This document shows positions 12,687-60,106 of a stretch of DNA of 64,000 nucleotides, piece by piece; position 1 is the first letter of the stretch; every line of letters begins with the position of its first letter. The position numbers and the translations under genes were made by a program. This DNA is from Spirochaetota bacterium (GTDB lineage: Bacteria > Spirochaetota > UBA4802 > UBA5550). Where the stretch lies: the NCBI GenBank assembly GCA_963663865.1, contig OY760686.1, positions 544,001-608,000 on the forward strand, in the 5' to 3' direction. The notes below the pieces were generated by a model. It searched no databases. It was not told the DNA's origin and saw only the letters and a program-made list of their open reading frames with translations.

Positions 12687-12860
12687 GGCAGGGAGCCTGC
12701 ATCCATTTTCACACTGAGAGCGTGGCGCTGCGTTTAATCGGGACGGTCTCGACCGTTCCCCTGTCACTGTTTTCTGTGCAGAGCGCACGGGCATTTCTTT
12801 TGCCACTGCGCTGCGTGACTCGCTTTTCTTTTAGCAGTGAGCCTGTTGTCTATTTTTACG
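12687..12860. repeat. Mosaic repeat cluster, copy 2 (partial)
   Basis: GGCAGGGAGCCTGC..TTTTCACACTG (12687) and CTGCGTTTAATCGGGACGGT modules also occur in copy 1 (10240 and 10174). Confidence 0.8.
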
Positions 12861-13056
12861 CCTCGCTTGAAAAACCTCAGCCATTGCGAGAAAACATAGT
12901 CTTGAATAGTATCGTGTTCTCGTCATTTAGTATTATTGGCTGCTTTGACGCTTACAGTGTAACTGTTTAATTTTAATCTGAGAATACCCTCCCTGTCTTT
13001 CTTCTTATCCCTCGAAAATTATTCAAACGACAAATAATTTATGTAATTTCTTCTAC

Positions 13057-13099
13057 CCTTGTCGGGAAGGACGACAGCCCGGGAAGGGTGTGATATTTT
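13057..13099 (+). promoter_or_regulatory. Putative AraC-activated promoter (box type 1)
   Basis: CCTTGTCGGGAAGGACGACA is 18/20 identical to the box at 29859-29878(-). ACGACA-N17-TATTTT geometry with TG extension. Confidence 0.65.
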
Positions 13100-13201
13100 T
13101 CCTTAAAGTTTAGGTTTTGTGTGAACAGGTGTAAACCCTTTCTGTGGCGCGGTTCGTCGTGATTGATTTTGGCTTATAATTAAGTCGTTGAGGGAGGTTA
13201 T

Positions 13202-14377
13202 ATGCAATCAGCTAATCATCAGATTGATGTCTTTCCGGATGTAGTAGTAAACCCGGCGGGTGCGGTTGTTATTAATAAAGACAACATTGAAACTTCAATA
13301 AGATTTATAGCTAATGATGGAAAAATAAAAGTAATCTCAAAAGTCTTCCCGCGTCTAACAGCTATTACAAAAGAGATCAAAAAATGGCTTAATAATAACA
13401 TGGTAAAAGATGTTGCTGTTCAAGGAGGCGGATGTAGCTGGAAGATGATCTGGAATAGTTTTGAAGATTCATTTAACCTTCATCTTACTCACTTCAATGA
13501 TCAAGTGTCCATGCCAGAAACTCCTCACCAAAAAAAAAGCGAATCTGAAAAAATATCCGAGCTACTTCAGTATGGCTTATTAAAAATAAAATTTATCCCT
13601 GACAGACTTACAAGAGAGTTGCGGGATCTTACAAGAATGCGGGAGGGCTTGATTGAAAGAAAATCAGTGCTGGGATGCAGAATTCAGTCAATTCTGGAAG
13701 AAGTCGGTATAACACCTGCGTCTTTAAGGAGCTATAATAATAGACCAATTTATAGAAAGGCTGGTTGGCATAGTGTAGTTGAAAATCTGATAGAAATTTG
13801 TGATTCCAGTCCTGTTTCAGAGCACAGTAAATACATTTTGGATATTCTTGCATCTGATTATAAGAAGGCTGATAAGAGTATTATGCGGCTTTCAGCCAGG
13901 ATAGCTCTTATGAGTGGAAGATATGAAAAACAGATTTCAGGACTTATGCAAATACCAGGCCTCTCAAGAAGGTACGCAGAGAGGATATTGGCCGAGACAG
14001 GAACTGATTACGATCGTTTTGATTCGCATAAAGCTCTGTTGGCGTGGGGTGGTATGTTTCCCCCACCTGCTCATGGTGATGGGGAAAGAACTATGGGGAA
14101 AAACGGAAAGGAATGGTTTAAACGTGCAATTGCCGATTCCGCCATTGCTGCCGCAAATGCTGCAAACTCAACACTTGCAAGAAAGTATACCATGCTTGAA
14201 TCTGAATATGGTATCAGAAAAGCTATGTCAGTTATTAAGCAGGACGTGGTCTATCTGATTTACAATATTATCAGGGAAGGAAAGAGCTATAGTGAATTAA
14301 GAGACTTTATCGAATTTAGTGAAGATACACATACATTATCAAAACCATATAAAATATGGGATGCCTCAATACCATGA
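13202..14377 (+). CDS. IS110-family transposase-derived protein, catalytic residues apparently lost
   Basis: IS110 scaffold motifs (ELLQYGLL..FIP..RELRDLTR, IPGL...ILAETG.D..RF, LLAWGG) are present, but the GLD, ES/TG, KTD..D and SAG positions are substituted. ORF intact; GGAGG RBS. Confidence 0.8.
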   Translation: MQSANHQIDVFPDVVVNPAGAVVINKDNIETSIRFIANDGKIKVISKVFPRLTAITKEIKKWLNNNMVKDVAVQGGGCSWKMIWNSFEDSFNLHLTHFNDQVSMPETPHQKKSESEKISELLQYGLLKIKFIPDRLTRELRDLTRMREGLIERKSVLGCRIQSILEEVGITPASLRSYNNRPIYRKAGWHSVVENLIEICDSSPVSEHSKYILDILASDYKKADKSIMRLSARIALMSGRYEKQISGLMQIPGLSRRYAERILAETGTDYDRFDSHKALLAWGGMFPPPAHGDGERTMGKNGKEWFKRAIADSAIAAANAANSTLARKYTMLESEYGIRKAMSVIKQDVVYLIYNIIREGKSYSELRDFIEFSEDTHTLSKPYKIWDASIP

Positions 14378-14521
14378 TATCATGAATATAAATTCAGTTT
14401 CAGACAGCGCATTGAGATACAAATTCCCTATGTTCGAGGGTATTTTTCTTAATTTAAACAACAGCGGAGTCTGTGCTGATTATATATATTTTTATTAAAC
14501 TATTTTAGGAGGATTTTTTTG

Positions 14522-16693
14522 ATGAAAAAAATTCTGGTACTTTTAAGTCTCTCCTGCGCCTTTTTCTTTGGCTGCGGGGATGACGGGGACGATTCGAAGA
14601 AAGTGGATGATGACACGTGTGTAAGTGTCTACTGTGATGAATCGGGATTACTCGAACAGCCAGCGATTGGAGTCAGAGACGGAAGCGGGAAAACGGTTAT
14701 TACGGTCGATGGTTACCAGTTTAAGGATTCTAATGGTAACGGAACTCTGGATGCCTACGAGGATTGGAGGCTTTCCGTCTCGGAGAGGGCAGAAGACTTG
14801 GTTGCAAGAATGACGGCTAATGAAAAGGCAGGATTTATAAATGCTCCCAGCGCGAGTGGAATGACAACAACAACAGGATCTCTTAAGAACGATGATGGTA
14901 CCTGGATCGAAACAAATTCAGGATATACATCTATTACGACTCTTTTTAGAAGATTCGGAATGATCACTTTGTCATCCTCGGATCAACCGGCACGGATTGC
15001 AACTTATAATAATAGTTTAAATGAAATCTGTGAAGGAGTATTGCGGGAGGATGGTTCAACTGGACTTGGAATTCCATTTGTCACCTGCACCAATCCGACT
15101 CATGGAACCAACTCTAACTCAACAAGTTTAATTTCTGCCTGGCCGTATGCAATTGGTCTTGGCGCTATTACAGATTCTTCTGTTATTGAAAAATATGCTT
15201 CAACAGTGAGGGCTGAGTTGACGGCGCTGGGAATCCGTTCTTATTACGGACCGCTCGCAGATGTTGCAACCGAGCCAAGGTGGGGCCGACAGAATGAAAC
15301 TTTTGGATCAAGCCCTGAAAGGGTGGCATCTTTTTCAACGATTGTGGTAAGAGCCCTTCAGGGAGGGAATTCTCTCAAGCCGGGAGGCATTGTATGCGCG
15401 ATCAAGCATTTCCCTGGGCATGGAGCTCAGTGGCGGGGTTATGACTCACATTACAAAATGGGTCAATATGTTGTCAACCCAGGAGACAACTTCGATATGC
15501 ATATTGCTCCGTTTGAGAAGGTATTCAGAGAAGTTGCTCCGGCTGCATGTATGCCGTGTTACGCAATTTACCAGGATCAGCCTTTTGAGAAGGTATCTCC
15601 AGGTTACAACGCAGAAATTATGAATGATCTGGGACGCGATCAACTTGGTTTTACTGGTTATTACACTTCAGACTGGGGGATTTTCGGAATGGGTGGAAGC
15701 CTTACTGCACCTCCTAGTACCGCAACTTTTGCAGCATGGGGTGTTGAGGGGTTGAGTTTAGAAGAAAAATTAGGCAAAGCCATGGATGCCGGAATGGATC
15801 AGCTTGGTGGCCATGGAAGTATAATGGATATAATAAGTGCGTTAAGTTACGGTAATCTTTCCGAAGAGACTCTGGACAGGGCGTGTGTCAATATCCTGAA
15901 AGGATATTTCACAATGGGTCTTTTTGAGAATCCCTATGTTGATGTGGATGCCGCTACGGATATTTGTAATACTGCAGAAAGTCAGGCTGCAGGACTGGAT
16001 GCAATGCACAAATCTATTGTTATGGTAAAAAACAGCGCTACGTTGCCGGCAGCATCGGGGATCAGTATTTATTATGACGGTACTGTAGATGGATCGGATG
16101 CAACCCAGGCTACATTTATCAATGAAACGTATGGTGCAACAGTTGAAACTGATATCACACAGGCTGACATTGCTGTAATAAGGATAAACGGACCCACACA
16201 TAGCAGGTACTATCCGAATGAGCCTACATTTTTGGGTTATCTGGGACCAAGCAGTCGTTCTCTGCAGTTTTTAGATGAAGAGCCAGACGTGCAGTATGGT
16301 GGTTCATACACTGTAGATTATACTGATGCTCTTGGTAACGTCCATTATGGAGTTATGTTGTCAACAAACATTGACCAGTATGAGAAAGTTATGAACGCAA
16401 AAAAAGAGATTATTGACGCTGGAGCTTCCACCAAACTTGTCGTGCTTGTTAATGCAGACAGGCCTCTGGTCATGAAAGAGTTTATAGATTACGTGGATGC
16501 CGCTTTTCTGACATTTGGTGCCAGCGATCAGGCTGTTCTGGATATTCTATTCTCAAAAGAGGGCCTTAAGCCTACTGGGGTTCTCCCTTTTGAAATACCC
16601 TCTTCTGATGATCAGGTTGAAGCACAGCTCGAAGACCTTCGAGATGATACATCTAATCCTCTATATAAGGCAGGTTATTCTCTGACTTATTAA
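14522..16693 (+). CDS. GH3 beta-glycosidase lipoprotein
   Basis: Lipobox FFG-C, FKDSNGNGTLDAYEDWRL, EPRWGR, KHFPGHG, nucleophile SDW, GLFENPY. Confidence 0.92.
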   Translation: MKKILVLLSLSCAFFFGCGDDGDDSKKVDDDTCVSVYCDESGLLEQPAIGVRDGSGKTVITVDGYQFKDSNGNGTLDAYEDWRLSVSERAEDLVARMTANEKAGFINAPSASGMTTTTGSLKNDDGTWIETNSGYTSITTLFRRFGMITLSSSDQPARIATYNNSLNEICEGVLREDGSTGLGIPFVTCTNPTHGTNSNSTSLISAWPYAIGLGAITDSSVIEKYASTVRAELTALGIRSYYGPLADVATEPRWGRQNETFGSSPERVASFSTIVVRALQGGNSLKPGGIVCAIKHFPGHGAQWRGYDSHYKMGQYVVNPGDNFDMHIAPFEKVFREVAPAACMPCYAIYQDQPFEKVSPGYNAEIMNDLGRDQLGFTGYYTSDWGIFGMGGSLTAPPSTATFAAWGVEGLSLEEKLGKAMDAGMDQLGGHGSIMDIISALSYGNLSEETLDRACVNILKGYFTMGLFENPYVDVDAATDICNTAESQAAGLDAMHKSIVMVKNSATLPAASGISIYYDGTVDGSDATQATFINETYGATVETDITQADIAVIRINGPTHSRYYPNEPTFLGYLGPSSRSLQFLDEEPDVQYGGSYTVDYTDALGNVHYGVMLSTNIDQYEKVMNAKKEIIDAGASTKLVVLVNADRPLVMKEFIDYVDAAFLTFGASDQAVLDILFSKEGLKPTGVLPFEIPSSDDQVEAQLEDLRDDTSNPLYKAGYSLTY

Positions 16694-16717
16694 GAAAGAC
16701 TATTCTGAAGTATTCCT

Positions 16718-16749
16718 GCTCCCCGGCATTTCCTGTCGGGGAGTGTTTT
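16718..16749 (+). terminator. Intrinsic terminator
   Basis: CTCCCCGGCA-N5-TGTCGGGGAG-TGTTTT after the GH3 stop codon. Confidence 0.7.
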
Positions 16750-16913
16750 AGAAAATATCTGAAACTGCCAGCCAGCAGTTGGCAGTTGTGGATGAGGTAA
16801 GTCTGAGTTTCTGTGTCGATATATTTGCTTTGGGGTTGAATCTGTCATACTTTCTTGATGCCATCGGGTTTCTGAAAAAACTAAAATTCAGCGTTGTGGA
16901 TAAAGTCGAAATA

Positions 16914-18098
16914 ATGATTAAGTATAATATAATTACGATAATAGCAATACTCGGATTTGGTCAGGGAGTATTTCTTGCAATTGTTCTGGCAACATCAAAG
17001 CAGAACCGTCAGTCCAACAGGATACTATCAATTTTTATGTTGATACAAGCCGTTGTTTTAGCTTCAAACTGTGTTTTTTCGCCGGATGTACAGTTGAACC
17101 TGCCGCATCTTTTACGAATCGACTGGCCGCTCTCAATGGCTTTTGGGCCTATTTTTTATTTTTATTATTCCTCCATTCTTGAAAAAAATTTCAAGTTTAA
17201 AGCTTACCATATTCTTCTTTTTATTCCATTTTTTTTATCAGTGCTGTTTCTAATGCCTCTATTTGTGCTGGATGGAGCCGCTAAATCTGATATCCTGCAT
17301 GCATCCTTTAATGGGTTGCCTTTGCATGCCTCGTATTCCAGGAATTTCAAGTATGTAGTTCCGGCGCTTCAGATGCAGATGATTATTTATTGTTGGATAT
17401 GTATTTGCAGGATAATAAAATACAGAAAAGAACTTTATGATTATAAATCAAATATAAGTAAAGAGAGTCTTTCATGGCTTTTATACCTTTCCATAATAAT
17501 GATTGTAACATACATACTCAATTTTATTGGTTTTATAGTAACGATTTATTTTCTTGATAAGTCTCTGAGTTACGTTTATGTCCATGATAGCATTGGTGCC
17601 ATGATAGCCCGTAATATAGCCCCTCTTGAGTTTGCTTTGCTCACATACATGATTGGTTATAAAGCCTTAAAACAGAGTGAACTATCAATAATCAGAGAAT
17701 TCCCGAAGACGCAGAGGAAATATGAGAAGTCATCCTTAACCGATGAAGAGAGCAAATCTATTATGAGTGAACTTTCCACCATCATGACAGAGGAAAAGCC
17801 CTATATGGATTCAAATCTTACAATTATTTCACTCGCGGAAAGACTATCAATTAGCCGTCATCATCTGTCTCAGGTTATAAACAGGGAAATGGGTCAGAAT
17901 TTTTATGAATTTATTAATACCTATCGTATTTATGAAATACAATCACGACTTCTGATTGATATGGGTGGGAGTGAAAATATTCTTGACGTTGCCTTTAAAG
18001 TAGGGTTTGACTCCAAGTCGGCATTCTATAAATACTTCAGGAATATTATGGGTATAACACCCAAACAATATATTGCAGGTAACAAGTTGAACAACTAA
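16914..18098 (+). CDS. Membrane-anchored AraC-family transcriptional regulator
   Basis: About 7 TM helices, then the AraC HTH domain (HHLSQVIN, NFYEFINTYRI, GFDSKSAFY). Start at ATG 16914 is likely. Confidence 0.9.
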   Translation: MIKYNIITIIAILGFGQGVFLAIVLATSKQNRQSNRILSIFMLIQAVVLASNCVFSPDVQLNLPHLLRIDWPLSMAFGPIFYFYYSSILEKNFKFKAYHILLFIPFFLSVLFLMPLFVLDGAAKSDILHASFNGLPLHASYSRNFKYVVPALQMQMIIYCWICICRIIKYRKELYDYKSNISKESLSWLLYLSIIMIVTYILNFIGFIVTIYFLDKSLSYVYVHDSIGAMIARNIAPLEFALLTYMIGYKALKQSELSIIREFPKTQRKYEKSSLTDEESKSIMSELSTIMTEEKPYMDSNLTIISLAERLSISRHHLSQVINREMGQNFYEFINTYRIYEIQSRLLIDMGGSENILDVAFKVGFDSKSAFYKYFRNIMGITPKQYIAGNKLNN

Positions 18099-18149
18099 AC
18101 ATCATAAGCATAATTGCTGATCAAAAGTTATAAAAAAAACCCACAGCAG

Positions 18150-18259
18150 GGGATTTTAAAAGTGTTATCGTTTCTTTCAGCTTTCCTATATCCTTGGACC
18201 TGATCGGGTCAGTTTTTTACGTCTTTTTTGAATTGATTCGACCGGATAATTGTCAGCAT
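18150..18259 (-). pseudogene. yafQ: YafQ/RelE-type toxin remnant
   Basis: ATG overlaps the antitoxin stop (TAATG). MLTIIRSNQFKKDVK is followed by frameshifted pieces LTRSG and KDIGKLKETITLL, then truncation. Confidence 0.7.
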
Positions 18260-18522
18260 TAGATTCCAAGATCGTCGAAAAGATCTTCAACTTTTTCGAA
18301 TTTATTCGAGTTCCTCTTTTTCCTGGAATCATCGATAGCCCTTAAAGTAATCTGATTTGGAAGCTTTACGCTAAAGGGTATTCCCTGGTTTGCAACAATT
18401 TGATGATAATACATATTTATTGCTGTAGAGTGATTGAGACCCAGCTTATCAAGGATCTTTCCAACCTCATCCTTGAGTTCTTTCTCTGTTCTGACGGATA
18501 ACGTTGTATTTGCCTGTGACAT
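18259..18522 (-). CDS. dinJ: RelB/DinJ-family antitoxin
   Basis: SVRTEKELK...LGLNHSTAINMY...GIPF...PNQIT...VEDLFDDL. Confidence 0.88.
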   Translation of the reverse strand: MSQANTTLSVRTEKELKDEVGKILDKLGLNHSTAINMYYHQIVANQGIPFSVKLPNQITLRAIDDSRKKRNSNKFEKVEDLFDDLGI

Positions 18523-18555
18523 GGTATTGCCTTTTTATGTAAAAGTATTTCTTAT

Positions 18556-18584
18556 AATGTAACACATAATAATTACATTGTCAA
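18556..18584 (-). promoter_or_regulatory. TA promoter with overlapping inverted-repeat operator
   Basis: Minus strand TTGACA-N17-TACATT; inverted repeat AATGTAA (18556-62) / TTACATT (18573-79). Confidence 0.65.
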
Positions 18585-18633
18585 TGCATTATATGTTATT
18601 TGTATTTATGTTGTGACATGTTGTCAATGACAA

Positions 18634-19346
18634 GGCGTCTGCCGTCTTTTTTCACGCTGAGAGCGTGGCACCTCTTTTGCCGCTTTTTGACCGGTTTTTT
18701 TGCCGTAGGCTTTAACTCGCTCAGCTGTGCGACTCGTTTTTCTCCTGGCAGGGAGCCTGCCGGCCATTTTCACACTGGGAGTGTGAGACCCTTTTCCGTT
18801 ACTTTCTTTTTTCGTGCCAAAAAAGAAAGTAACCAAAGAAAAAGGGCATGCCTGCGCGGCATGCGATGGGACATCCATGTCCTAAGAATTAGCCACTATG
18901 AATTATTTCAAAGAGTGATAGCTTTATTATGTCAGACTCCTTCGGAGCCGGAATGCGCAGCGTCCTGCTGCGCTTGAGTGATTAAATTATTTATTTCATG
19001 AAGTAACTGATTGTTTTATTCCGCCATTGTGTTTTGCCGACTCATCGCAGTCATACGCGGAAGAAGGGCGAGAATGTCTGAGCCTGCGTAGCAGGCGAGT
19101 TTCGCAGCCCCCGCGGATGACAAGAGGAGGAGGGAAGCCGAAGGCCGGAACATTGGCGGCAGATTTCTTTTGACCACTTTTCTTATAAAAGAAAAGTGGT
19201 GAGAAAACCCTGATGAAACGGCACCCGGACGATTTGCTTCCATGCAAATCGCACTGGTTGAGTCGTTGTTGTAGGGTGCATCCAATGTCTTATCCCGACA
19301 TTTTTTTGCCGACGGCTATTTCGATTTCCTTGCCGCTGTCGGCACT
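18634..19346. repeat. Mosaic palindromic repeat cluster, copy 3
   Basis: Shares modules with copy 1 in a different order; includes hairpin GTTACTTTCTTTTT..AAAAAGAAAGTAAC. Confidence 0.85.
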
Positions 19347-19381
19347 GTGACATCGTGTCAGGCGCCCCTCTTCAAATCTCC

Positions 19382-19409
19382 TTGACACTTAACTGTGTTC
19401 TGATAGTAT
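19382..19409 (+). promoter_or_regulatory. Putative sigma70 promoter
   Basis: TTGACA-N16-TAGTAT with extended TG. Confidence 0.55.
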
Positions 19410-19442
19410 CTCTTTTAGCATTAAGGATACAGGGAGAAAACA

Positions 19443-19706
19443 TTGGGCGTTAACGAACTGAGAGCACTCATCTTTAAAGCCGTTGAGCAGCTGAATATGT
19501 ATGAGCTTTCGCCGACCGGGCAGAAGCTTGTAGCGCATTACTTCAACAGTTCCAGTGCGGAGACTACCTACCAGAGGGCGCTTGACGCAATTGAACGTTA
19601 CATCCCGGAGAGGCTCCCTTCTCCCGAAAGGCCCGCCTCCGCGCGGATTGAAGCTTTGCTTGCCGAACTCAAACGGGAAGCTGACAATATTGATTCTGAA
19701 GGATAG
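19443..19706 (+). CDS. Small hypothetical protein
   Basis: TTG start with GGGAG RBS; stop codon 1 nt before the next ATG. Confidence 0.6.
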   Translation: MGVNELRALIFKAVEQLNMYELSPTGQKLVAHYFNSSSAETTYQRALDAIERYIPERLPSPERPASARIEALLAELKREADNIDSEG

Positions 19707-19707
19707 T

Positions 19708-20610
19708 ATGAAACCGACATTACTTATACTCGCTGCGGGAATGGGCAGCCGCTACGGAGGGCTCAAGCAGCTTGACAGCTTCGGTCCCTCGGGCGAGGCA
19801 ATTATTGATTACTCAATCTACGACGCGGTCAGGGCCGGGTTCGGGAAGGTGGTCTTTGTCATAAGGGAAGGTTTTTCTGAAAGCTTTAAGGCGGCTTTTG
19901 AACCCAAGCTCGCAGGCCGCATCGAAACCGCTTATGTCTATCAGGAACTCGACAGGATTCCCGAGGGGTTTAAGGCCCATCCTGAGAGGGTGAAGCCCTG
20001 GGGAACAGGGCATGCCGTTCTTATGGCCGCCGATGTCATTGACAGCCCCTTCGCTATTATTAACGCGGACGATTTCTACGGGAGACAGGCCTTTGAGGCG
20101 CTTGCGTCACACATGACTTCAGGCTCTCCCTCCAATGAGTACTGCATGGTCGGATACAGGCTTGCCGGTACGCTCTCAGAGAACGGTTCGGTTTCACGCG
20201 GGGTCTGCGTTACAGATGAAAGCGGCTATCTCACGGATATTACTGAGAGGACTGATATCAGACGGGAGAACGGGGGGATATTCTTTCACGAGGACGGAAA
20301 GTCATTTCCTCTCACAGGAAATGAAAATGTTTCAATGAACTGCTGGGCGTTTCAGCCCGACTTTTTTGGATACCTGAGCGAAGGCTTTCAGGATTTTCTG
20401 AAGAGAAGGGGGACTGAGCTTAAATCGGAGTACTTTTTCCCGTTCGAGGTTTCCGACAGGCTCCAAAGGGGACAGATTAAAGTCAGGGTGCTCCCGACTG
20501 AGTCCGAGTGGTTCGGCGTCACTTACCCGGAAGACAGGCCCGGTGTGGAGAAGAGCCTGGCCGGCCTTATCCGGAGAGGAGAGTATCCCGTATCGCTCTG
20601 GGCTTCTTAA
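19708..20610 (+). CDS. Sugar-phosphate nucleotidyltransferase
   Basis: MKPTLLILAAGMGSRYGGLKQ, KPWGTGHA, INADDFYG, WFGVTY. The true start is 19708, not 19555. Confidence 0.9.
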   Translation: MKPTLLILAAGMGSRYGGLKQLDSFGPSGEAIIDYSIYDAVRAGFGKVVFVIREGFSESFKAAFEPKLAGRIETAYVYQELDRIPEGFKAHPERVKPWGTGHAVLMAADVIDSPFAIINADDFYGRQAFEALASHMTSGSPSNEYCMVGYRLAGTLSENGSVSRGVCVTDESGYLTDITERTDIRRENGGIFFHEDGKSFPLTGNENVSMNCWAFQPDFFGYLSEGFQDFLKRRGTELKSEYFFPFEVSDRLQRGQIKVRVLPTESEWFGVTYPEDRPGVEKSLAGLIRRGEYPVSLWAS

Positions 20611-22091
20611 AACCTCTTTGTCAGGCTTAGCCCGTAGAAGGGAGAGCTGTCTTCAGAAAATGAAAGGTATGGAAGCACTGTGAAGTCTTCCTGAATATTT
20701 TCGGCGGAGGCGATTCTGTCTTTGCTCAGTACCGCGTGTACAATCTCAACGATCTTTACCGCCCCGTAGACCGCCGCGATTTTGTAGCCGCGGTCTTTGT
20801 TTGTGCTGCCCCTGACGTATCGGCCGTCAATCAGCGTTTCGGGAGCCGAAAAATCACGGAGAGCGGCATAGACAAGTATGTTGTTCAGGTGGAAGTAGAA
20901 ATATCCCCAACCCCTGGAGCCGCGGTAGAAATGCCCGCCGCCTCCTGATACAAGTGAAAGATAGCCTGCCATGAAAGAACTGCCCGTGTAAGACTGCGGA
21001 GGCCCGAATACAGAGGCGTTCTGGAGCGACTGGTGCGCGAATGCGTCAACAAACAGTGATGTGCCTCCGGCCAGTAGCATGTACCATGCGAAGCGGTAGG
21101 CGGCCGCCCTGTGCAGGCTGATATCCTCCCCTCTGTCTTTGAGCTTTGAAGGCCTGTTGATGAAGCCGTCCGCTTCAATGTAGAGGTACGGTGACGCGTT
21201 TGCTGCCCACAGGGCGAGCCCTGTCCAGTCCTTATACTCATAGTGCCCGAAGAGCGGAGCGGCAACGGGCATCAGGGCGCTGCCGACGGGAGCGAGAAGC
21301 ATGGCTGCGGCGCTTCTTTCTATGGTCGGTCTGGAGAACACCATCTCATGCTTACGGCCGTAATAGAAGCTTTCAATTCTGTCAGCCCTGCTGTCGTGAG
21401 AAATGAAGATGAATCCACCAGGCTTAAGGATCGACGAATAATCTGAATGAACCCTGCCGCCGGCAATTTCAATATTGCCCGCCGGCGAAAAACCGGTAAG
21501 CCCTGAGATCGCATCGGGGGCTTTGATGAAGTACCTGTATGTTCCGTCCGGGACAGGCGGGCCGGATGAAGAAAGTGCTCCATCCACAGATATTTCCGCC
21601 TGCGTCCTGAGTTTCCTGAACAGTCCAGCGATAAACAGGGCCGCGTTCTCCTCGCATATACCGGCTGACTGATAAGTGGTGAGCCCCGGGGGCGTCTTAA
21701 GCTCGGCGCTGCGGGTGTAGACAGCCCGGCCGTTGTAGGGGAAGTCTGTCGAGTAGGCAGTCAGTCTCAGAAGCATGGTTTCGTCCATGTCTTCAAGGCT
21801 TCCTGAAATAACAAGGCTGATTCCGGCGTTTTCTGAAAAACGGAGAACACACTTCTCATCGGTGCAGGCGAATTTATTCAGCTGCTCCTTGAGGGATTCG
21901 GCATTAACAAGCTCATATATTCCGGCTGAGTCAAGGATGCTTCCTATATGAGTTCCAGTGTTAAGCGCGAAAGGCACCGCTCTGGGTGTTGCCGCCGATA
22001 TTCCGGTGAAGGCGGCCAGGGGCCTTGCGCTTGCTTCATATGATATGTTAAGCGCGGCTGCAAGCGCCGCGGCAAGAATTATCTTTTTCAT
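20607..22091 (-). CDS. Hypothetical exported/membrane protein, paralog of 7329..8804
   Basis: Signal peptide; LSLVSGGGGHFYRG and GAVKIVEIVHA; C-terminal Phe. Confidence 0.7.
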   Translation of the reverse strand: MKKIILAAALAAALNISYEASARPLAAFTGISAATPRAVPFALNTGTHIGSILDSAGIYELVNAESLKEQLNKFACTDEKCVLRFSENAGISLVISGSLEDMDETMLLRLTAYSTDFPYNGRAVYTRSAELKTPPGLTTYQSAGICEENAALFIAGLFRKLRTQAEISVDGALSSSGPPVPDGTYRYFIKAPDAISGLTGFSPAGNIEIAGGRVHSDYSSILKPGGFIFISHDSRADRIESFYYGRKHEMVFSRPTIERSAAAMLLAPVGSALMPVAAPLFGHYEYKDWTGLALWAANASPYLYIEADGFINRPSKLKDRGEDISLHRAAAYRFAWYMLLAGGTSLFVDAFAHQSLQNASVFGPPQSYTGSSFMAGYLSLVSGGGGHFYRGSRGWGYFYFHLNNILVYAALRDFSAPETLIDGRYVRGSTNKDRGYKIAAVYGAVKIVEIVHAVLSKDRIASAENIQEDFTVLPYLSFSEDSSPFYGLSLTKRF

Positions 22092-22179
22092 ACTGAGGAT
22101 TAATAAAATTCACGGCGGTTTCGTCAAGGAATAATCGGGAGGTCAGCCGAAGGCTGCCGTAAAGCAAAAAGGAATTAAA

Positions 22180-23061
22180 TCAGCTTTCACCGCTTTTCCC
22201 GGTTTCCCTATTTCTCGGCTTTCTGCCGTAAAGCTTCTCCGCGCATTCAGGGCAGATGCCGTGCGTGAAGTCCGCGCCTGTGTGAGTTTTAACGTAGTCT
22301 TCAAGACGGTTCCAGTACCCTTTGTCATCGCGTATTTTTTTACAGCTCGCGCATATTGGCAGCAGACCGCTCAGGGTTCTGACCTCCTCAAGGGCTTTTT
22401 TCAATTCAGCAATTGATGAATGAAGTTTTTTAAGAATAGGGTTGGTCAGCAGTATAAAAAGAAATGACGCGGCAAAAACAAGCACTATCGTTATCGAAGT
22501 CGTGATATACGATGCGCGCTTGAAAGGGATGGAAATGCTTTCCATTGACCTGTGTTTTACAATCGCTGTTTCGAGGGTAGGGATGTAGCTGTATGCGGAA
22601 ATGTACTCCATTCCTTTTCTGTCGGTCTCGTAGATTACTCCGCTTTTTCCCTCAAAGGCCAGCCTCAGGGGTTCCGGCATGTTTTCGTCGATGGGGATGG
22701 GGTCGGATTTGTCGAGTTCAGGGCCCTGCTTGAAGGCTATGAAGCGGATCATCCCGTCTGCTTTTTCCGCGATGATGAGCTGCTCATCCTCTTCGGAATA
22801 TTCAATCTGCGAGAGTGCGTTTTGTATCTGCCTGAAGGTGAGTTTCTTCCAGTCCTTTATGGAGTACATCGCCGCGTAATCGCGGTCGTGAGCGGCCACT
22901 GCCTCTATCAATCTCGCGTATGAATTTACGGTGTTGTACAAATGCTCTCTTTCATCTTCAATCTCGGAGGAATAGAGTATACCTATTGTTATAACCTTGG
23001 CAATAACGGTAACGCCAATCATGAGCATCACGAGAAGGAACAGCCTGAGCCTTGTGTGCAT
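22180..23061 (-). CDS. Membrane sensor protein (Cache-like domain) with C-terminal Cys-rich Zn-binding-type output domain
   Basis: Start MHTRLRL at 23061 with GGAG RBS; two TM helices; LSGLLPICASCKKIRDDKGYW...FTHGICPEC. Confidence 0.8.
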   Translation of the reverse strand: MHTRLRLFLLVMLMIGVTVIAKVITIGILYSSEIEDEREHLYNTVNSYARLIEAVAAHDRDYAAMYSIKDWKKLTFRQIQNALSQIEYSEEDEQLIIAEKADGMIRFIAFKQGPELDKSDPIPIDENMPEPLRLAFEGKSGVIYETDRKGMEYISAYSYIPTLETAIVKHRSMESISIPFKRASYITTSITIVLVFAASFLFILLTNPILKKLHSSIAELKKALEEVRTLSGLLPICASCKKIRDDKGYWNRLEDYVKTHTGADFTHGICPECAEKLYGRKPRNRETGKSGES

Positions 23062-23194
23062 TTGACTCTCCTCTTGGAAGCGGTTATGTACGCTCTGCCT
23101 CTGCGCTGTAAAGGTAATTATAACTGTTTGTTCCCGGATCGTCAAGCCCCCCGGACTACAAATCCAGGGGGGGACAGGCTGATGCAGAGCAGGT

Positions 23195-24337
23195 CTACTT
23201 AACTCTGTCGAGAACCGCGAGAGTCTCAACGTGAGGTGTCTGGGGAAACATGTCAAAGGCCTCGAAGGATTTAACTTCGTACTGATTGAGCCCCGCCAGG
23301 TCGTCTCGGAATGTTGCCGGGTTGCAGGACATGTAGACAATTCTGTCGGGGGCCTTTTCGTTAATGAGCGGGAGCATTTTCGGGTGCATCCCGGCGCGGG
23401 GAGGATCAAGGATAAGAGTGTCGTATCCGGCAATGCCGTCCCTGACGAACTCAGCAGCATCCTTTTCAATGAAATCAGCGTTTGCGGTACCGTTAAGTTC
23501 CCGGTTTTCGAGAGCCGACTCAACTGCCTCTGGAACAATCTCGACTCCGGTAACAGACTCTGCTCCGCCGGCGGTAAAAAGCGAAATGCTTCCGACGCCT
23601 GAATAGAGATCAAGCACCCGGCCTCTGACCTCTTCCCTGATGCGCCTGTACATCTGAAGGGCCACAGGCGAGTTGGACTGGAAGAAAGAATTAGGCGTAA
23701 TGCGGTACCTGATTCCGTCAAAGGACTCTTCAATGTAGTTTCGCCCGAACGAGTCGATGACCTCCCCGAAGCTCTGGTCCGCGAGTCCGTCGTTGAAGAT
23801 AATGTTGATCGAATCGGCATCATCGGATATTTCACTGATAATATCTCTCAGCCTGTTGTCCCGCGAAGCGGTAACGAAGCTTACCATTGTCTGTCCGGTA
23901 AAATACGCCTGTCGGAAAACCGCGTAACGCAGATAGCCTTTGTGCGACAGGTAATTGTAACCTTCGATTTCAGCGAGCATGGGTCTGAGCTTTTTATAAA
24001 GAGAGTTTGTTTTTGTCTGCATTATGGCGCATGATTCTACGTCAGTGACAAACCTGTAGCTTCCTTCCTCGCGCAGGCCTATCTTCCCGAAGGCGCATAC
24101 CATATCCATGCGGTTACGGTATACAAGGGGCTCAGACGGGTTGACGCTGTCAACAGAGAGGGCCCCGTCAAAAAGCCCGTTGATGTATTCTTTTTTCAGC
24201 AGCAGCTGGTTTTCGTAGGCGATGTCCTGAAACATGCAGCCGCCGCATTTCTCGAAGTGAGGGCATACAGGCGTGACGCCTTCGCCCCTGAAACGTTCAG
24301 CGAGGCTGTGAAACAGCTTCTTCTTTTTTTTCTTCAT
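23195..24337 (-). CDS. rlmD: 23S rRNA (uracil-5)-methyltransferase, RlmD/TrmA family
   Basis: CPHFEKCGGC, SFFQSN, DLYSGVG, DPPRAG, YMSCNPAT, DMFPQTPHVE. Confidence 0.9.
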   Translation of the reverse strand: MKKKKKKLFHSLAERFRGEGVTPVCPHFEKCGGCMFQDIAYENQLLLKKEYINGLFDGALSVDSVNPSEPLVYRNRMDMVCAFGKIGLREEGSYRFVTDVESCAIMQTKTNSLYKKLRPMLAEIEGYNYLSHKGYLRYAVFRQAYFTGQTMVSFVTASRDNRLRDIISEISDDADSINIIFNDGLADQSFGEVIDSFGRNYIEESFDGIRYRITPNSFFQSNSPVALQMYRRIREEVRGRVLDLYSGVGSISLFTAGGAESVTGVEIVPEAVESALENRELNGTANADFIEKDAAEFVRDGIAGYDTLILDPPRAGMHPKMLPLINEKAPDRIVYMSCNPATFRDDLAGLNQYEVKSFEAFDMFPQTPHVETLAVLDRVK

Positions 24338-24408
24338 TGTGTCTCCGCGGTAAAAAAGTCAGAATGCAGGTTTTAACGGGAGCTGTAATGAGTAAAGAAT
24401 AATTTTTT

Positions 24409-26106
24409 CTATGCGTCATCATTATCAGGGTCAAACAGGACAAAGCTGTTTCTGCCCGTGAAGATAGCTGCCCTGTGGCCATCCATAAATGTATCCGAAA
24501 AGGTGCTTCCCGGTTCCGGCGTGAAAAGAAGAGAGCGCTTCAGCGAGGCCCTGTCGATTCCTTGCGGCAGCGGGCTTTCTTTTTTTTGGGGGGTGGATAA
24601 TGACCTGTAGCAGTCACGTTTCAATTTCCTTAGATGAGCGCCCTGAAGATAATCAGGATACCGGTTCCGTCCCGAAGAGAGGCCCCAGTCCCAGCGGAGG
24701 CAGTCGCGCAAGAAGGCCGCGTCGGGATTAATTGATTGCGCGTAAATAAGCAGGGCGCGGCCCAGCGATTCAGCTTCCCTGATGTTCATGCCGCTGTCAT
24801 TGTGTTTGTTAAGCCATTCGGCGATTGACATGTACATTTCGAAGGGCGAAGCGAAAAAAGGCAAAATGCCGCCGGTAAATGTTTTAAACCTTCCGGAGTT
24901 ATAGAGCAGATCAAGCGTGGATGAGAACCTCACGAGAGAGGCCATATCGTCTTCAGTCAGGACGGTGGTCGATGTAACAGGATACGGAGGTTCCTGCGAG
25001 TAACGAATTCCGAAGGAGGTAGCGCTTTCCCTCATCAAAGTGCCCGGCAGACACTTGAGTATCCCTGACTGAATGTGTTCGGCTCCGGTTGCGTAAACCC
25101 GGTTAAATCCGCTGCCGTATGATGCTATATCCTCAAGAGGAAGGCCGGCGATGAGGTCGACGTGAAGGTGAATATTGCCGGCTCGGACGAGGCGGCTTAC
25201 CGAGTTAAGCGTCTTTTCAGTGTCACCAGCGCGATGTACGGCTTTAAGGACGGCAGTGTTAAGCGACTGTATGCCCGCCTCAAACTGGAACAGACCGGGC
25301 GGCGCCTTCTCAAGAAGACTGAAGTCCTCATCGCGCAGAAGAGATGCCCTTATCTCAAAATGGAATGAAGTGCCTGATGTGCAATATCTGCTTATAATGT
25401 AATCCCAGATAAGCGCCGCTCTTTCAGGGTCGGCGTTGAAAGTCCTGTCGACAAACTTGATGAGGCGGGGGCCCTTTGACACGAGGAAGTCTATCTCACG
25501 GAAAACATCCGTTGTGTCACGGAATTCAAGCTGCTGGTCTGAGCGTGACGATAGGCAGTAAGCGCAGCGGCAGGGGCAGCCGCGCGAGGATTCATAGTAG
25601 ATGTACTTGCCGCTGAGCTTTGGGAAGTCAGAGTCCCTGTACGGGAAAGGTATCTGCCGGAAGTGCGCGTTCGGGCGCCTGATGAGCTTGTCTGTAAGGG
25701 TAAAACGGGAACGTCCAAGCTCTTCGAGGGCCGCTTCGCCCGCTCCCTGAATAATGTACGTTGCTTCAGGGAAAAGCGAGGCGGCTTCATCAGTGAAGCC
25801 TGCTTCGGGCCCTCCCACAACAATGGGCAGACCCGGTAAAGCGGAGCGGAGCATTCTTATCGCCTGCCCGGCAATATCCCTGTTCCAAATGTAGACCGAA
25901 AAGCAGACCGCTGAGGGGGACAGAGAAGCCGCCTCGGTAGCAATAAGGCCGGGCTCCTGCTTAATAGTGTATTCTTTTATAACGGGGCTGTATCCCTCTG
26001 CTTCTACCGGGCTTCGCAGGTACAGAAGAGAGGGGTTGGACTGGCTGTATCTTGAGTTTATGCCGATCAGCAGGACTGGTTTATTATCATTAATCTCGTC
26101 TTTCAT
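24409..26106 (-). CDS. B12-binding radical SAM protein (DUF4080-type)
   Basis: YYESSRGCPCRCAYC, KFVDRTFN, HVDLIAGLP. Confidence 0.88.
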   Translation of the reverse strand: MKDEINDNKPVLLIGINSRYSQSNPSLLYLRSPVEAEGYSPVIKEYTIKQEPGLIATEAASLSPSAVCFSVYIWNRDIAGQAIRMLRSALPGLPIVVGGPEAGFTDEAASLFPEATYIIQGAGEAALEELGRSRFTLTDKLIRRPNAHFRQIPFPYRDSDFPKLSGKYIYYESSRGCPCRCAYCLSSRSDQQLEFRDTTDVFREIDFLVSKGPRLIKFVDRTFNADPERAALIWDYIISRYCTSGTSFHFEIRASLLRDEDFSLLEKAPPGLFQFEAGIQSLNTAVLKAVHRAGDTEKTLNSVSRLVRAGNIHLHVDLIAGLPLEDIASYGSGFNRVYATGAEHIQSGILKCLPGTLMRESATSFGIRYSQEPPYPVTSTTVLTEDDMASLVRFSSTLDLLYNSGRFKTFTGGILPFFASPFEMYMSIAEWLNKHNDSGMNIREAESLGRALLIYAQSINPDAAFLRDCLRWDWGLSSGRNRYPDYLQGAHLRKLKRDCYRSLSTPQKKESPLPQGIDRASLKRSLLFTPEPGSTFSDTFMDGHRAAIFTGRNSFVLFDPDNDDA

Positions 26107-26177
26107 TATAAATGTATTTATCCGGGGGAAAGGGCAGTTTTTTCAAACAATTAAAATCAATAATTCAAAAAGAAGGC

Positions 26178-27335
26178 CTATTGCACAATCGTTTTAAGAT
26201 ATTCGCCCGGTGCGGTCCCCATTATTTTTTTGAAGGCCGAGTAGAAGGCCGACTTTGAATCAAAGCCGGATTTGAAGGCTATTGACAGGATGTTTGTCTG
26301 GTCTCCTGATGATGTTTTAAGCATCTCGATAGCGGCCCTGATTCTGTAGCTGTTGACAAAAAGGTAGAAGTTGCTTCCTGTCTTGATGTTTATTGCCTGT
26401 GATAAGTGATGCTTGCTCACGTTAAGCTTCTCTGCAAGGGCCTCAATCGTAAGGTCAGGGTCCATGAAGAGCTTTTCCTCTTCCATTTTGCTGCAGGTCT
26501 GGTTGAAAAGAGAGTCAACTTTGTCATCGTTAAGCCCGGCCTTTCTGTATTTAACACTTTTTGAACTCAGCCGGCTGTCTGCTTCTGTAAGGGCTGACTC
26601 GTTCTGTTTAAGGCTTTTATATCCTATAATGTAGAGAATTACGGTAAAACCGACAACAGGGATGAAAGCGGTATCTTTCCAAGGAATCTTAATAAAACCG
26701 GCAACTGTAAGAACAACTCCGAAGAAGTTTACAAGATAGTTAGGAATCATGAGCACTGACATCAGCAGGAGCCAGTTAAGCGACTTGTTCTCCAGAGATG
26801 AATGCGATTGAAGCAGGGCCTTTCTGTACTTCAGTATGCGCCGTATTGAGATTGTGATGTATATCATCATCTGAATCTGTATCCCGGGGACGCTCAGCAT
26901 TGAGCTTGCGGGAAGAGAATTACCGTCAGGCAGAACAGCTTCTCCGAATATTCTCGCTTTGATAATCAGTTCTTTCTCCTGTCCTGAAAGCATGTAGATG
27001 CCGAGATTGTCTAAAAAAGACAGCAGGGCGGTCGAAAAAAGCAGCAGGTGAACTGGTCTTATGCGAAATGTCCTGTCAATCATTGCTCTTATATAAAAGT
27101 AGAAGAGCGGCCCAAGGGCCATTGAAAGCGGCCAGTCAACGAGAAAGAGGTGAGGGAAAGGCAGCCTTATGCTGTATGTGACAACTGAGTTTGCCGCGAT
27201 TACTATGGCCTGTATGAACATGAATGCCGCGAGGATGCGGTTCGCGTATCTGTTCTTCCTGGAGTTGGCAAGAAGGAAGAAGAAAAAGAAACCCTGTGTT
27301 ATCCCGAGAAGCGCTATTGCTGAAGTTATGTTCAA
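26178..27335 (-). CDS. Membrane-anchored AraC-family regulator
   Basis: TM helices; PHLFLVDWPLSMALGP, HHLSQAIN, GFDSKSAFY. Close paralog of 16914..18098. Confidence 0.9.
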   Translation of the reverse strand: MNITSAIALLGITQGFFFFFLLANSRKNRYANRILAAFMFIQAIVIAANSVVTYSIRLPFPHLFLVDWPLSMALGPLFYFYIRAMIDRTFRIRPVHLLLFSTALLSFLDNLGIYMLSGQEKELIIKARIFGEAVLPDGNSLPASSMLSVPGIQIQMMIYITISIRRILKYRKALLQSHSSLENKSLNWLLLMSVLMIPNYLVNFFGVVLTVAGFIKIPWKDTAFIPVVGFTVILYIIGYKSLKQNESALTEADSRLSSKSVKYRKAGLNDDKVDSLFNQTCSKMEEEKLFMDPDLTIEALAEKLNVSKHHLSQAINIKTGSNFYLFVNSYRIRAAIEMLKTSSGDQTNILSIAFKSGFDSKSAFYSAFKKIMGTAPGEYLKTIVQ

Positions 27336-27460
27336 GCGTCATACTCCTTTTTTCGGGGTATTAGAACGTCTGCAGTTTACAAAACTGCCGAATGGCTCAC
27401 CGGTGTTTGAAGAGGGCTGTATCTCGGGCCGCATTTCCAATGCCGGCTGTTATCTTCGCA

Positions 27461-27491
27461 TAAAGAGCCGGGGAGTTGAGGGCTCCCCGGC
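27461..27491 (-). terminator. Intrinsic terminator after the GH3 gene
   Basis: Minus strand GCCGGGGAG-loop-CTCCCCGGC-TCTTTA. Confidence 0.65.
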
Positions 27492-27517
27492 AATCACTAT
27501 TTTAGGATAGAAGAATT

Positions 27518-29724
27518 TTACTGATATGTCAAACCGAAACCTGCCTCAAAGGCCGGATTCAGCGTGTCATCTGCTACGTCCTCAAGCTGGGCTTCCACTT
27601 CAGTGTCAGAAGAGGGCAGCTCAAATGGCAGTTTGCCTGATGGTTTCAGCCCCTCGTAGGCGAAGATCATGTCAAGAACAGCCTCATCAGTTGCTCCGAA
27701 AGACAGGAGAAGCGCGTCAACCTTATCAACATATTCTTTGACAACAACAGGCCTGTCAGCGTTGACGATTACTACGAGTTTGGTCACTGCTGAGGCGTCA
27801 TCAATCGCCTTTCTCGCGCTGAGGACCTTTTCAAGCTGACCGATATTGCCGGCTATTTCAACGTCTTCGTACAGGACACCAAGAGGATCGGTATAATCCG
27901 CGGGAGTAATGCCGTACTCTGTATCCGGAGCTTCATCGATGTACTGAAGCGACCTGCTGCTCGGACCGACATAGCCCATAAAGGCAGGTTCAGTCGGATA
28001 GAATATTGAATAGGAAGGTCCGTTAATACGGATAACAGCGATGTCGGCCTGTGTAATGTCAGTAACGACTTCCGCTTCGTACCCGCCTTCGATGAAGTCG
28101 GCAAAGACGCTATCAGTACCGCTGGAATTCCCTTCGTAGTAAATCTTTGAAGAGGCAGAGGCAGGCAGGGCTGAGCTGTTTTTCAGCAGGACCATTGATT
28201 TGTGCATGGCGTCAAGACCCGCTGCTTTGTTTTCGTCACTGTTGCAAATCGAAGCTGCAGCTTCCACGTCGGTATAGGGGTTTTCAAACATACCGATCGT
28301 GAAATATGATCTGAGGATATTACTGCATGCCCTGTCGAGGTCGTCCTCGGTCATAAAGCCTTCAGTGATCGCGCCTTTGATGTCATCAAGTGTTCCGTGT
28401 CCGCCAAGCTGATCCATGCCCGCTTTGATTGCCTTCCCTATTTTCGCTTCGGGAGAGAGATCCTCTACTCCCCAGGAAGCGTACGAGCCGGGGATAATCA
28501 TCCCATAACCGCTGTTATATATTCCAAAGAGTCCCCAGTCGGAGGTGTAAAAGCCTTCGAATCCGAGCTCATCGCGCCCGAGGGTTGTGAGTATCTCTTC
28601 ATTGAATCCCGCGGCTACCTGCTCGAAGTCCTGGTCCTTGTAAATAGAATAGCAGGGCATTGAACCGGCAGCATTTGCTTCGGCAAATGCCTTCTGGAAT
28701 GGATAGACGTGCTCATCAAAGTTGTCTCCGGGATTTACGACATATTGGCCTAATGCGTAGTGCGAATCGTATCCTTTGACCTGAGCACCGTGGCCGGGGA
28801 AATGCTTTACCGTACAGATGATGCCGCCGGGCTGAAGAGAGTCGCCGCCCTGGAATCCCTTGATGAGTTCTACAATGTGTTCAGCTATGGTTTCAGAGTC
28901 TGATCCCATGGTTTCATTTATACGCTGCCATCTTGGTTCTGTAGCGAGGTCGGCAACGGGTCCGAAAAGGCACCTGATACCGAGGGCTTTGAACTCCGCT
29001 TTTGCTATAGACGCGAAGTCCTTTGTTACTTCGACGTCATTCACCGCACCCAGGCCGATCGCGAAAGGCCACTGGGATATGTTTGATGTGGCGTTGTTGT
29101 TAGTGCCGTGTACGGGGTTTGAGCTGACAACAAAGGGAATGGCGAGCGAGCTTGCCTCGCAGAGCTTATTCAGGTTGTTGATATAAGCAGCAGTTGCTTG
29201 AGGAAGAGCCGGCGAACTTAGCATTCCGAACCTTCTATGTAAGTCTGTAATATCAGTAATATCTGTGCTGTCTTCTGCTATTGAGCCGTCAGGAGTTTTT
29301 ACACCTGCGATTGAGGGCGCGTTGATAAAGCCTGCTCTTTCGTCAAGAGACATCTTGCTGACAAGGTGTCCGCTGCTCTCTCGCTGACGCTGAGTCTCCA
29401 GTCCTCGTAGTCGTCAAGTGCCCCGTTACCGTTTAGGTCCTTAAATGTGTAGGTAACGGCGGTTCCTTCCGAGTCTGTTACGTCAACAGTCAGTTTGTTT
29501 TTCGCTACCCCTTCTCCGATGACGATTTCGGGTTGAGCAAATACACCGTTAACACAGTACACGCTTTCACCCACGGTACATGCTGTTCCGTCTGGATAGG
29601 TAATCTTTTCCTCTTTGTCGTCGTCATCATCGCCGCAGGCGGTGAACAGCATCGACAGGGACAGGAAGCAGAAGAGCATCATTGATAGTGCCCTGAATGA
29701 GACTGAAACGTTTTTTTGCATCAT
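27518..29724 (-). pseudogene. GH3 beta-glycosidase lipoprotein with a frameshift near 29366
   Basis: The N-terminal ORF (lipobox FTA-C, FKDLNGNG..YEDWRLSVSERAAD) joins 27518..29353 if 2 extra nt (GAC-AC-CTT) are removed. The paralog reads ERAEDLVARM. KHFPGHG and SDW are intact. Confidence 0.85.
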
Positions 29725-29835
29725 AAGCCTCCAAAAAAATAGTGAGTTGTAGGGCTGGGAACGGTACGGACTCAAATCTCCTGAAAATTACGCTATCGGC
29801 AGGCAGACGGATCCCGGACTGACACAGCCTGTCGC

Positions 29836-29878
29836 ATAATAAAGCGGATTTTTGCGTTTGTCGTCCTGTCCGACAAGG
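29836..29878 (-). promoter_or_regulatory. Putative AraC-activated promoter (box type 1)
   Basis: Minus strand CCTTGTCGGACAGGACGACA-N17-TATTAT; matches the box at 13057. Confidence 0.65.
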
Positions 29879-29905
29879 AAGGACTTCTTTTTCAGGAAAG
29901 GCGGA

Positions 29906-59833: not shown

Positions 59834-60106
59834 ATCGTTGTGAATTCATGACTTAATCAGGTGTTAATCTTTAATGTATCTATTGATGCAAGGTCTTTTT
59901 CAATCAAGCTGCAGGCACAGGTGCTCTCGACACCTGTCTGATATAGCGTTGGATTGTAAGGTATAAACTGTAAAGAACAAAGTTATAGCATATAAATAAT
60001 ATATGGGGTTGTGAGCATGACCTGTTTTATAAAATAGAACCGGCATCACTTTGTCCCAATATATATTTATATAGATATCAACATATTTTTAGGAGGGTCA
60101 TTGATA

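Follow-up and report, generated by a model that had tools for sequence, protein, structure and literature searches.

The stretch analysed here, which we call the window, comprises 64,000 nucleotides (nt) of a Spirochaetota bacterium (assembly GCA_963663865.1, contig OY760686.1, positions 544,001 to 608,000 of the forward strand) and lies inside a single 3,156,400-bp contig with 45.9% GC. It contains two copies of a 20-bp sequence, hereafter the box, each of which precedes a module of genes for a glycosidase of glycoside hydrolase family 3 (GH3) and a membrane-bound AraC-type regulator; in one of the two modules the first gene is derived from a recombinase of the IS110 family of insertion sequences (IS). 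A third copy of the box precedes a sister module elsewhere in the genome. The boxes and the genes of modules A, B and C, with lengths in amino acids (aa) and open reading frames abbreviated as ORFs, are as follows.

13057..13076, forward strand: box A, CCTTGTCGGGAAGGACGACA; its 3' hexamer, ACGACA, is a proposed weak -35 element; 125 nt before the ATG at 13202
13202..14377, forward strand: IS110-derived gene A, 391 aa, with a Transposase_20 match
14519..16693, forward strand: GH3 A, 724 aa, with an N-terminal signal/lipobox-like sequence
16779..18098, forward strand: AraC A, membrane-bound; ORF from a TTG at 16779, first ATG at 16914; about six hydrophobic segments followed by a helix-turn-helix (HTH) domain
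29859..29878, reverse strand: box B, CCTTGTCGGACAGGACGACA; 134 nt before the GH3 B ATG at 29724
27518..29775, reverse strand: GH3 B, two overlapping ORFs (29775-29299 and 29353-27518) with a frameshift near 29365-29372
26178..27335, reverse strand: AraC B, membrane-bound, 385 aa, with recognition-helix residues as in AraC A
C1:718828-47, forward strand: box C, CCTTGTCGGGGAGGACGACA, 175 kb away; 120 nt before the first ATG of module C
Module C (L001): the box, 120 nt, an IS110-like gene (413 aa), GH3 (773 aa) and AraC (443 aa)

Modules A and C share one order of parts, namely the box, the IS110-like gene, GH3 and the membrane AraC, and in module B the box is followed by the frameshifted GH3 and AraC, with no IS110-like gene before GH3 B. 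Both GH3 domains are present in GH3 A (PF00933, E 4e-31; PF01915, E 3e-8), and GH3 B gives similar scores. At the amino acid level, the GH3 proteins are 58-59% identical between A and B and 84% between A and C, the AraC proteins 42% and 82%, respectively, and the IS110-like proteins of A and C 52%. AraC A and AraC B are AraC proteins of a polytopic, membrane-bound type: about six hydrophobic segments lie in the N-terminal part, and Pfam recognises nothing beyond the HTH.

A sequence-only reading of the window had proposed that a shared promoter element links the IS110-derived gene to the GH3 genes. Both boxes lie where that reading had located them, their identity of 18/20 positions holds, and the split of the GH3 gene behind box B near 29365-29372 is confirmed. 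The placing of the IS110-like gene behind the same element as the GH3 and AraC genes is borne out as well, as the three boxes all lie on the coding strand, 125 (A), 134 (B) and 120 nt (C) 5' of the first ATG of sister modules. Box B begins 28 nt past the stop codon of a PAS-kinase/receiver gene. At up to three mismatches the window holds exactly two matches to the box, namely A and B, against an expectation of 0.01, and two or more matches were found in none of 100 dinucleotide shuffles of the window. A scan of the whole 3.16-Mb genome, which had been suggested as a check on how frequent the motif is, found it to be infrequent, with two copies at no mismatch, three at up to two mismatches, and two looser matches added at three mismatches. 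Eighteen of the 20 positions are invariant across the three copies, and the box is the sole conserved block in a three-way alignment of the upstream regions, the flanks of which are unalignable; between A and C, 100-nt windows around the box are only 34-47% identical. These observations support the box as a non-random, module-specific cis element.

The history of modules A and C sharpens this picture. In 100-nt windows, the IS110-like genes of the two modules are 50-73% identical and most of GH3 73-94%, and a tract of about 500 nt at 16720-17220, running from the 3' end of GH3 into the 5' half of AraC, is close to 100% identical, which points to recent gene conversion between the two modules. 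Synonymous divergence (dS) between A and C likewise rises from 0.43 in AraC and 0.75 in GH3 to 1.66, which is near saturation, in the IS110-like gene. This gradient and the window identities suggest that the 3' parts of A and C were homogenised recently, that the 5' part is old and that the box is a constrained island within it. Gene conversion between A and C does occur elsewhere in the modules, and a chance similarity, or a very short and recent conversion tract carrying a functionless box, might be considered. Such an origin is nevertheless extremely improbable given the expectation of 0.01 per window, the absence of paired matches from all 100 shuffles and the equivalent positions of all three copies; with flanks that cannot be aligned, a tract of exactly 20 bp would have been needed three times.

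Outside this genome the box is not associated with the same genes. At up to one mismatch, six matches were found in five of 60 related genomes, compared with four for the reversed control; none of the six lies beside a GH3 or IS110-like gene of the kinds considered here, and one is near a generic AraC HTH. A search of 185,579 species genomes gave at least 119 loci in unrelated phyla, and among the matches listed there is no case of this GH3 or of the IS110-like gene within 4 kb and one case of a generic AraC HTH. We read all of these outside matches as chance.

Within the genome, the box follows a particular group of AraC proteins. AraC A, B and C have the HTH residues S(R/K)HHLSQ.IN and GFDSKSAFY in common, in agreement with the earlier observation that the two AraC proteins adjacent to boxes A and B share HTH segments. 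The five other module AraCs carry N..LS-type helices and GFNSK..FNRAF, and none of their five modules has the box, which is present in all three modules whose AraC has the residues of the ABC clade. When 23 regions located 5' of a GH3 or an IS110-like gene are compared, the box matches those of A, B and C without a mismatch, and in the other 20 even the closest match has at least six mismatches. In the GH3 tree, the grouping ((A,C),B) has a support of 98 and is joined by F with a support of 99; GH3 F is 55% identical to GH3 A and thus about as distant from it as GH3 B is, AraC F is just 24-27% identical to AraC A, B and C, and module F is without the box. The box therefore follows the AraC clade and not the IS110-like gene, because module B has no such gene, and it does not follow GH3 alone, because GH3 F groups with the ABC proteins yet its AraC has diverged and the box is absent. 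No extra copy of either half of the box was found inside modules A, B and C.

We read the box, with moderate confidence, as the probable operator for the regulators of the AraC A/B/C clade. On this reading the box would overlap a weak -35 element (ACGACA) of a sigma-70-type promoter that depends on an activator, and this promoter would drive an operon of the IS110-like gene, GH3 and AraC in modules A and C and of GH3 and AraC in module B, with transcription start sites predicted at about 13106 (A) and about 29829 (B). The membrane domain of AraC might sense a sugar, upon which AraC would switch on its own module and possibly the two sister modules, and the IS110-like gene would be co-expressed with GH3. 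A sigma-70-type promoter model is reasonable for a spirochaete host; the genome has three matches above the cut-off to FlaA, a spirochaete flagellar sheath family, of which none of 14 control genomes has any. The proposed -10 elements are:

13094..13099, forward strand: putative -10 of A, TATTTT, preceded by TGA, 17 nt after ACGACA
29836..29841, reverse strand: putative -10 of B, TATTAT, 17 nt after ACGACA; unchanged in strains X8 and X11

The sequence-only reading had described ACGACA, exactly 17 nt and then a -10 element as the shared arrangement, which stands for A (TATTTT) and B (TATTAT) and fails in the third copy, C, where the corresponding hexamer is GTAAGA. Promoter B was listed by a promoter scan with a match of 9/12.

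A second type of box provides a comparison for this arrangement. It was found at locus G, which has two IS110-like genes, G1 and G2, in the following places:

C1:60226-60251 and C1:63075-63100 (L030 7226-7251 and 10075-10100), reverse strand: G box, 26 nt, GGTATCGTTTT[C/G]TAAAATGAGACGAC

These are its two copies in the genome, and no others were found even at four mismatches. IS110-like G1 follows one of them at a distance of 102 nt, and the operon of GH3_G, IS110-like G2 and AraC_G follows the other at 182 nt. The G box also ends in GACGAC, and the hexamer 17 nt past its ACGACN is TACCAT or TAATAA. Judged by these sequence features, locus G would be an independent replicate of the pattern in which a box stands before a module, and we count it in favour of the operator reading. 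A search for common boxes in modules D, E, F, H and I gave nothing convincing.

The candidate operator resembles sites that are well known for AraC/XylS activators at class II promoters, where the operator overlaps the -35 element, such as the marbox of MarA/SoxS/Rob, which is about 20 bp long, and the RhaS, XylS and AraC I2 sites. Like these, the box is about 20 bp long and asymmetric, is predicted to abut or overlap a poor -35 element, precedes the regulator's own sugar-related operon and is a single type of site common to paralogous regulators with the same recognition helices. Unlike them, it would be recognised by a polytopic membrane protein and contains a 5+5 palindrome; in addition, the -10 spacing is not conserved in copy C, and the first gene of the operon is derived from IS110.

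Several points weigh against the operator reading. In module C, the position 17 nt after ACGACA gives GTAAGA, with TAAGAA at 18 nt and TGATATGGT (TG-A-TATGGT) at 13 nt as the other candidates. The promoter scan, with its threshold of 9/12, did not report promoter A, which matches at 8/12, and transcription could instead be driven from a perfect TATAAT that lies nearer the ATG of gene A (about 13172-13177). The three loci that tie the box to AraC are related and hence not independent. Strain variation is consistent with the operator reading but is a weak test of it: in a comparison covering 29650-30000, for which contigs of two related strains were used (X8 spans the whole region and X11 spans 29702-29912), 16 non-coding sites between 29725 and 29905 depart from the window, the nearest to box B being 29853, 29855 and 29881. 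None of the 16 falls in box B or TATTAT, where chance alone would place about 1.8 of them in the box (p about 0.15). Finally, the palindromic core of the box, TGTCG-N7-CGACA, could also be a target for another regulator, one that binds as a dimer.

The last point leads to a separate explanation, namely that the box is the operator of another protein, either a symmetric dimer on TGTCG-N7-CGACA or the IS110-derived protein acting in trans, with AraC binding elsewhere. We regard this as unlikely, though some points favour it: the TGTCG and CGACA arms are invariant in all three copies, the IS110-derived protein appears, from its structural model, to keep the nucleic-acid-binding scaffold of bridge recombinases, and in two of the three modules the gene behind the box is IS110-like. 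Conservation of the box, however, is asymmetric (CCT-TGTCG-G..AGGA-CGACA), since the CCT on the left and the AGGA in the centre are invariant as well, and the size and asymmetry of a 20-bp site fit the two-HTH domain of AraC/XylS proteins better than a symmetric dimer. No candidate gene for a dimeric regulator is common to the three loci. As regards the IS110-derived protein, seven other IS110-like genes have no box, and because module B keeps the box without an IS110-like gene, that protein seems to be independent of the box in cis. In addition, canonical IS110 proteins read DNA via a bridge RNA and not alone, according to the available text of Durrant et al. 2024 (PMC11208160).

The box could instead act as RNA, as a 5' leader hairpin, an attenuator or a small RNA common to the three modules. 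It does form short hairpins (in C, GTCCTCCC and GGGAGGAC flank a TTGTCG loop), and leader A folds better than shuffled sequences, with a z of -2.24 and 6 of 200 shuffles folding as well. The hairpin is not conserved, however: A is without the 5' arm, each of the three leaders folds in its own way, and the leaders of B and C reach a z of only -0.64 and -1.11. There is no conservation downstream of the box, and Rfam gave no family at gathering score in the window, with chance-level matches alone in 12900-13260, so that a role as RNA is very unlikely. A guide-like repeat of the centre of the box within its own leader was considered separately and dismissed; CGGGAAGG occurs twice in A, which 48 of 2000 shuffles equal, and for B (534/2000) and C (492/2000) such repeats are at the level of chance.

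IS110-group elements carry a non-coding left end and a bridge RNA upstream of the ORF, and the box might accordingly be taken for a relic of an ancestral IS110 left end or attachment site, either functionless now or still serving as a recombination site. The distance from the box to the IS110-like ORF is fixed at 120-125 nt in A and C, and these two modules do exchange sequence (16720-17220, about 100% identical). Neutral DNA, on the other hand, would not remain 19/20 identical at a dS of 1.66, module B retains a box with no IS110-like gene, seven other members of the family have none, and the DEDD and Ser residues of the proteins are lost. Rfam, the folding of leaders and the comparison of upstream regions revealed no bridge-RNA-like conserved structure near the IS110-like genes; the sole upstream sequence that IS110-like copies have in common is the box of modules A, B and C, and the G box upstream of G1 is common to the promoter region of GH3_G. 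Taken together, an origin as an IS110 relic has little probability.

The operator reading concerns a common kind of regulation, as an AraC-type operator shared by paralogous sugar modules is ordinary. What is not ordinary is a disabled IS110 family built into GH3-AraC operons. Nine IS110-like copies were found in the genome by tblastn, all of which are intact ORFs of 340-413 aa; copy A is 19 to about 50% identical to the others, and there are no near-identical copies. Eight of the nine genes are on the same strand as a GH3 paralogue and 50-420 nt away from it, with an AraC gene usually there too. Six lie 5' of GH3 (A, C, D, E, F and I), two lie between GH3 and AraC (G2 and H), and G1 is 1.8 kb 5' of GH3_G.

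IS110 recombinases depend for catalysis on DEDD and Ser residues. Of these five positions (D, E, D, D and S), mapped here on the profile match to IS621, none of the nine copies keeps more than one. Copy A has V, Q, K and E in place of DEDD and G in place of Ser, and the Ser position (ESAGK motif) is occupied by G, K, E, G, D, G, I, E and R in the nine copies. By comparison, nine of ten canonical relatives keep all five catalytic residues, and the tenth (G039) keeps four on an uncertain alignment. Copy A passes the cut-off for PF02371 (Transposase_20; 34.6 bits against 21.3) and falls below those for PF01548 (the DEDD domain; 20.2 against 29) and for NF033542, the IS110 family of NCBIfam (70.1 against 140). 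A profile search of the PDB with copy A matched IS621 (E 3e-20), and a single-sequence search of the PDB gave no match. The AlphaFold2 model of copy A has a pLDDT of 87.9 and the overall RuvC, coiled-coil and Tnp fold; its best Foldseek hits are 8wt9, 8wt6 and 9t56 (IS621 and ISCro4; E 2e-13 to 5e-12, about 355-364 columns, TM 0.53-0.66), followed by TIGR-Tas and Nop5/Nop56/58-type chains. The family is thus like IS621 (PDB 8wt6-8wt9) and ISCro4 (9t56) in its full-length fold, its coiled-coil and its IPG...AE.G...F...W.G motifs; it differs from them in keeping no more than one catalytic residue per copy, in having no near-identical copies and in that no conserved upstream RNA was found, and from IS110 elements in general in being fixed inside GH3/AraC operons.

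The sequence-only reading had called the IS110 gene of module A dead. This is correct in the catalytic sense; the gene itself, however, is not a decayed IS but intact and one of nine conserved paralogues in GH3/AraC operons. The family has been kept through deep divergence, with all nine ORFs intact and a ratio of nonsynonymous to synonymous substitution rates (dN/dS) of 0.24 for A and C, the sole measurable pair, whose dS is near saturation.

To examine how widely the family occurs, a profile of the nine copies was searched against 1.84 billion representatives. Nine clusters alone exceed 280 bits, and canonical IS110 proteins begin at 232 bits. Seven of the representatives above 280 bits match copies of this genome exactly. 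The remaining ones are P0034, which is nearly identical to F, P0039, which resembles H, and P0041, a new addition to the family; these three and the further members P0186 and P0187 all come from one other genome. In a phylogenetic tree, 10 of 11 dead proteins fall in one clade (SH-aLRT 99), and the divergent copy I lies just outside on a long branch. Because the dead proteins so nearly form a single clade, one ancient inactivation of the family is likely, though not proven. Adjacency to an IS110-like gene is scattered on the GH3 tree and needs seven changes, and the close relationship of GH3 E to GH3 H is not mirrored by IS_E and IS_H. The two kinds of gene thus differ in part of their history, as a result of gene conversion or reshuffling.

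It is likely that the IS110-like family has been put to a new host use, and its protein may be a domesticated, non-recombining, nucleic-acid-binding accessory of the sugar modules. A more specific proposal, that the nine dead homologues are exapted bridge recombinases whose retained RNA- and DNA-holding scaffold now serves regulation, by RNA binding or RNA guidance, or chaperones recombination between the GH3/AraC modules, in a lineage-specific and rapidly reshuffling sugar-sensing regulon, each being switched on from the AraC box of its own module, is doubtful. If true, it would be the first case in bacteria in which a complete IS110 recombinase has come to regulate host genes, comparable to the paths from TnpB to TldR and from an IS110-like ancestor to Nop5. 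The system lends itself to experiments, since it offers three boxes with three AraCs, a natural control without an IS110 gene in module B and a second type of box at locus G.

IS110 proteins are RNA-guided recombinases of current interest. To our knowledge, the known exaptations of IS110 are Nop5 and Prp31, in archaea and eukaryotes. The derivation of Nop5/Prp31 from IS110-like ancestors is described in the available part of Vaysset et al. (10.1101/2024.06.21.599552), and the available text of PMC12259090 presents TnpB- and Cas12f-derived RNA-guided transcription regulators as exapted; in PMC5581495, as far as its available text goes, IS110 is used as a comparator alone. The family described here is like these derivatives in that a transposon-derived protein with an inactivated RuvC-like site is encoded by an intact gene in a fixed host context. 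It is unlike them in that no guide RNA was found, in its context of carbohydrate-enzyme/AraC operons and in being confined to this genome and one near relative. A further comparison is Piv, the pilin invertase of Moraxella, a host-recruited and catalytically active DEDD recombinase of the IS110 family that inverts DNA. As with Piv, an IS110-family protein stands at a fixed chromosomal locus in what may be host service, but the proteins here are without the catalytic residues. In the full-text literature, subscription journals and supplements excepted, no bacterial family of full-length dead IS110 proteins in metabolic or sugar operons was found in the text available.

Another member of the family lies in the same window, in module D, which is arranged as follows.

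55864..57003, forward strand: IS110-derived paralogue D, 379 aa, catalytically dead and without the ABC box
57426-59546 and 60101-62254: GH3 genes of module D, after paralogue D
62447-63559, reverse strand: AraC of module D, convergent

The GH3 family, for its part, is greatly expanded in this genome, with at least 16 matches at E <= 1e-60 and about 25 tblastn matches at E <= 1e-5; at E <= 1e-60 it was found in none of 36 genomes of the same family and in one of 24 genomes of the same order. The GH3 paralogues A, B, E, G and H have a leader, CACTATTTT(T)AGGAGG, directly 5' of their start codons (for example, 14495-14518 and 29725-29745), and it seems that GH3 genes take this ribosome-binding leader with them when they are duplicated.

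Additional variation was seen around boxes and modules in the related strains. In run X10, one contig departs from the window at 29754 and another starts at 29936, and the region of box B may be different or rearranged in that strain. Module A is bordered at 12690-12860 and 18600-19420 by mosaic intergenic repeats, which are dispersed through the genome in dozens of partial copies, and the contig depth of related strains is up to 15-fold higher in these repeats. In runs X4 and X12, contigs connect 12834 with 18767. An absence of module A was rejected as the meaning of this joint, because both of its ends lie in the dispersed repeat and X4 also has a contig over 13087-14536; most likely, the joint arises through the dispersed repeats.

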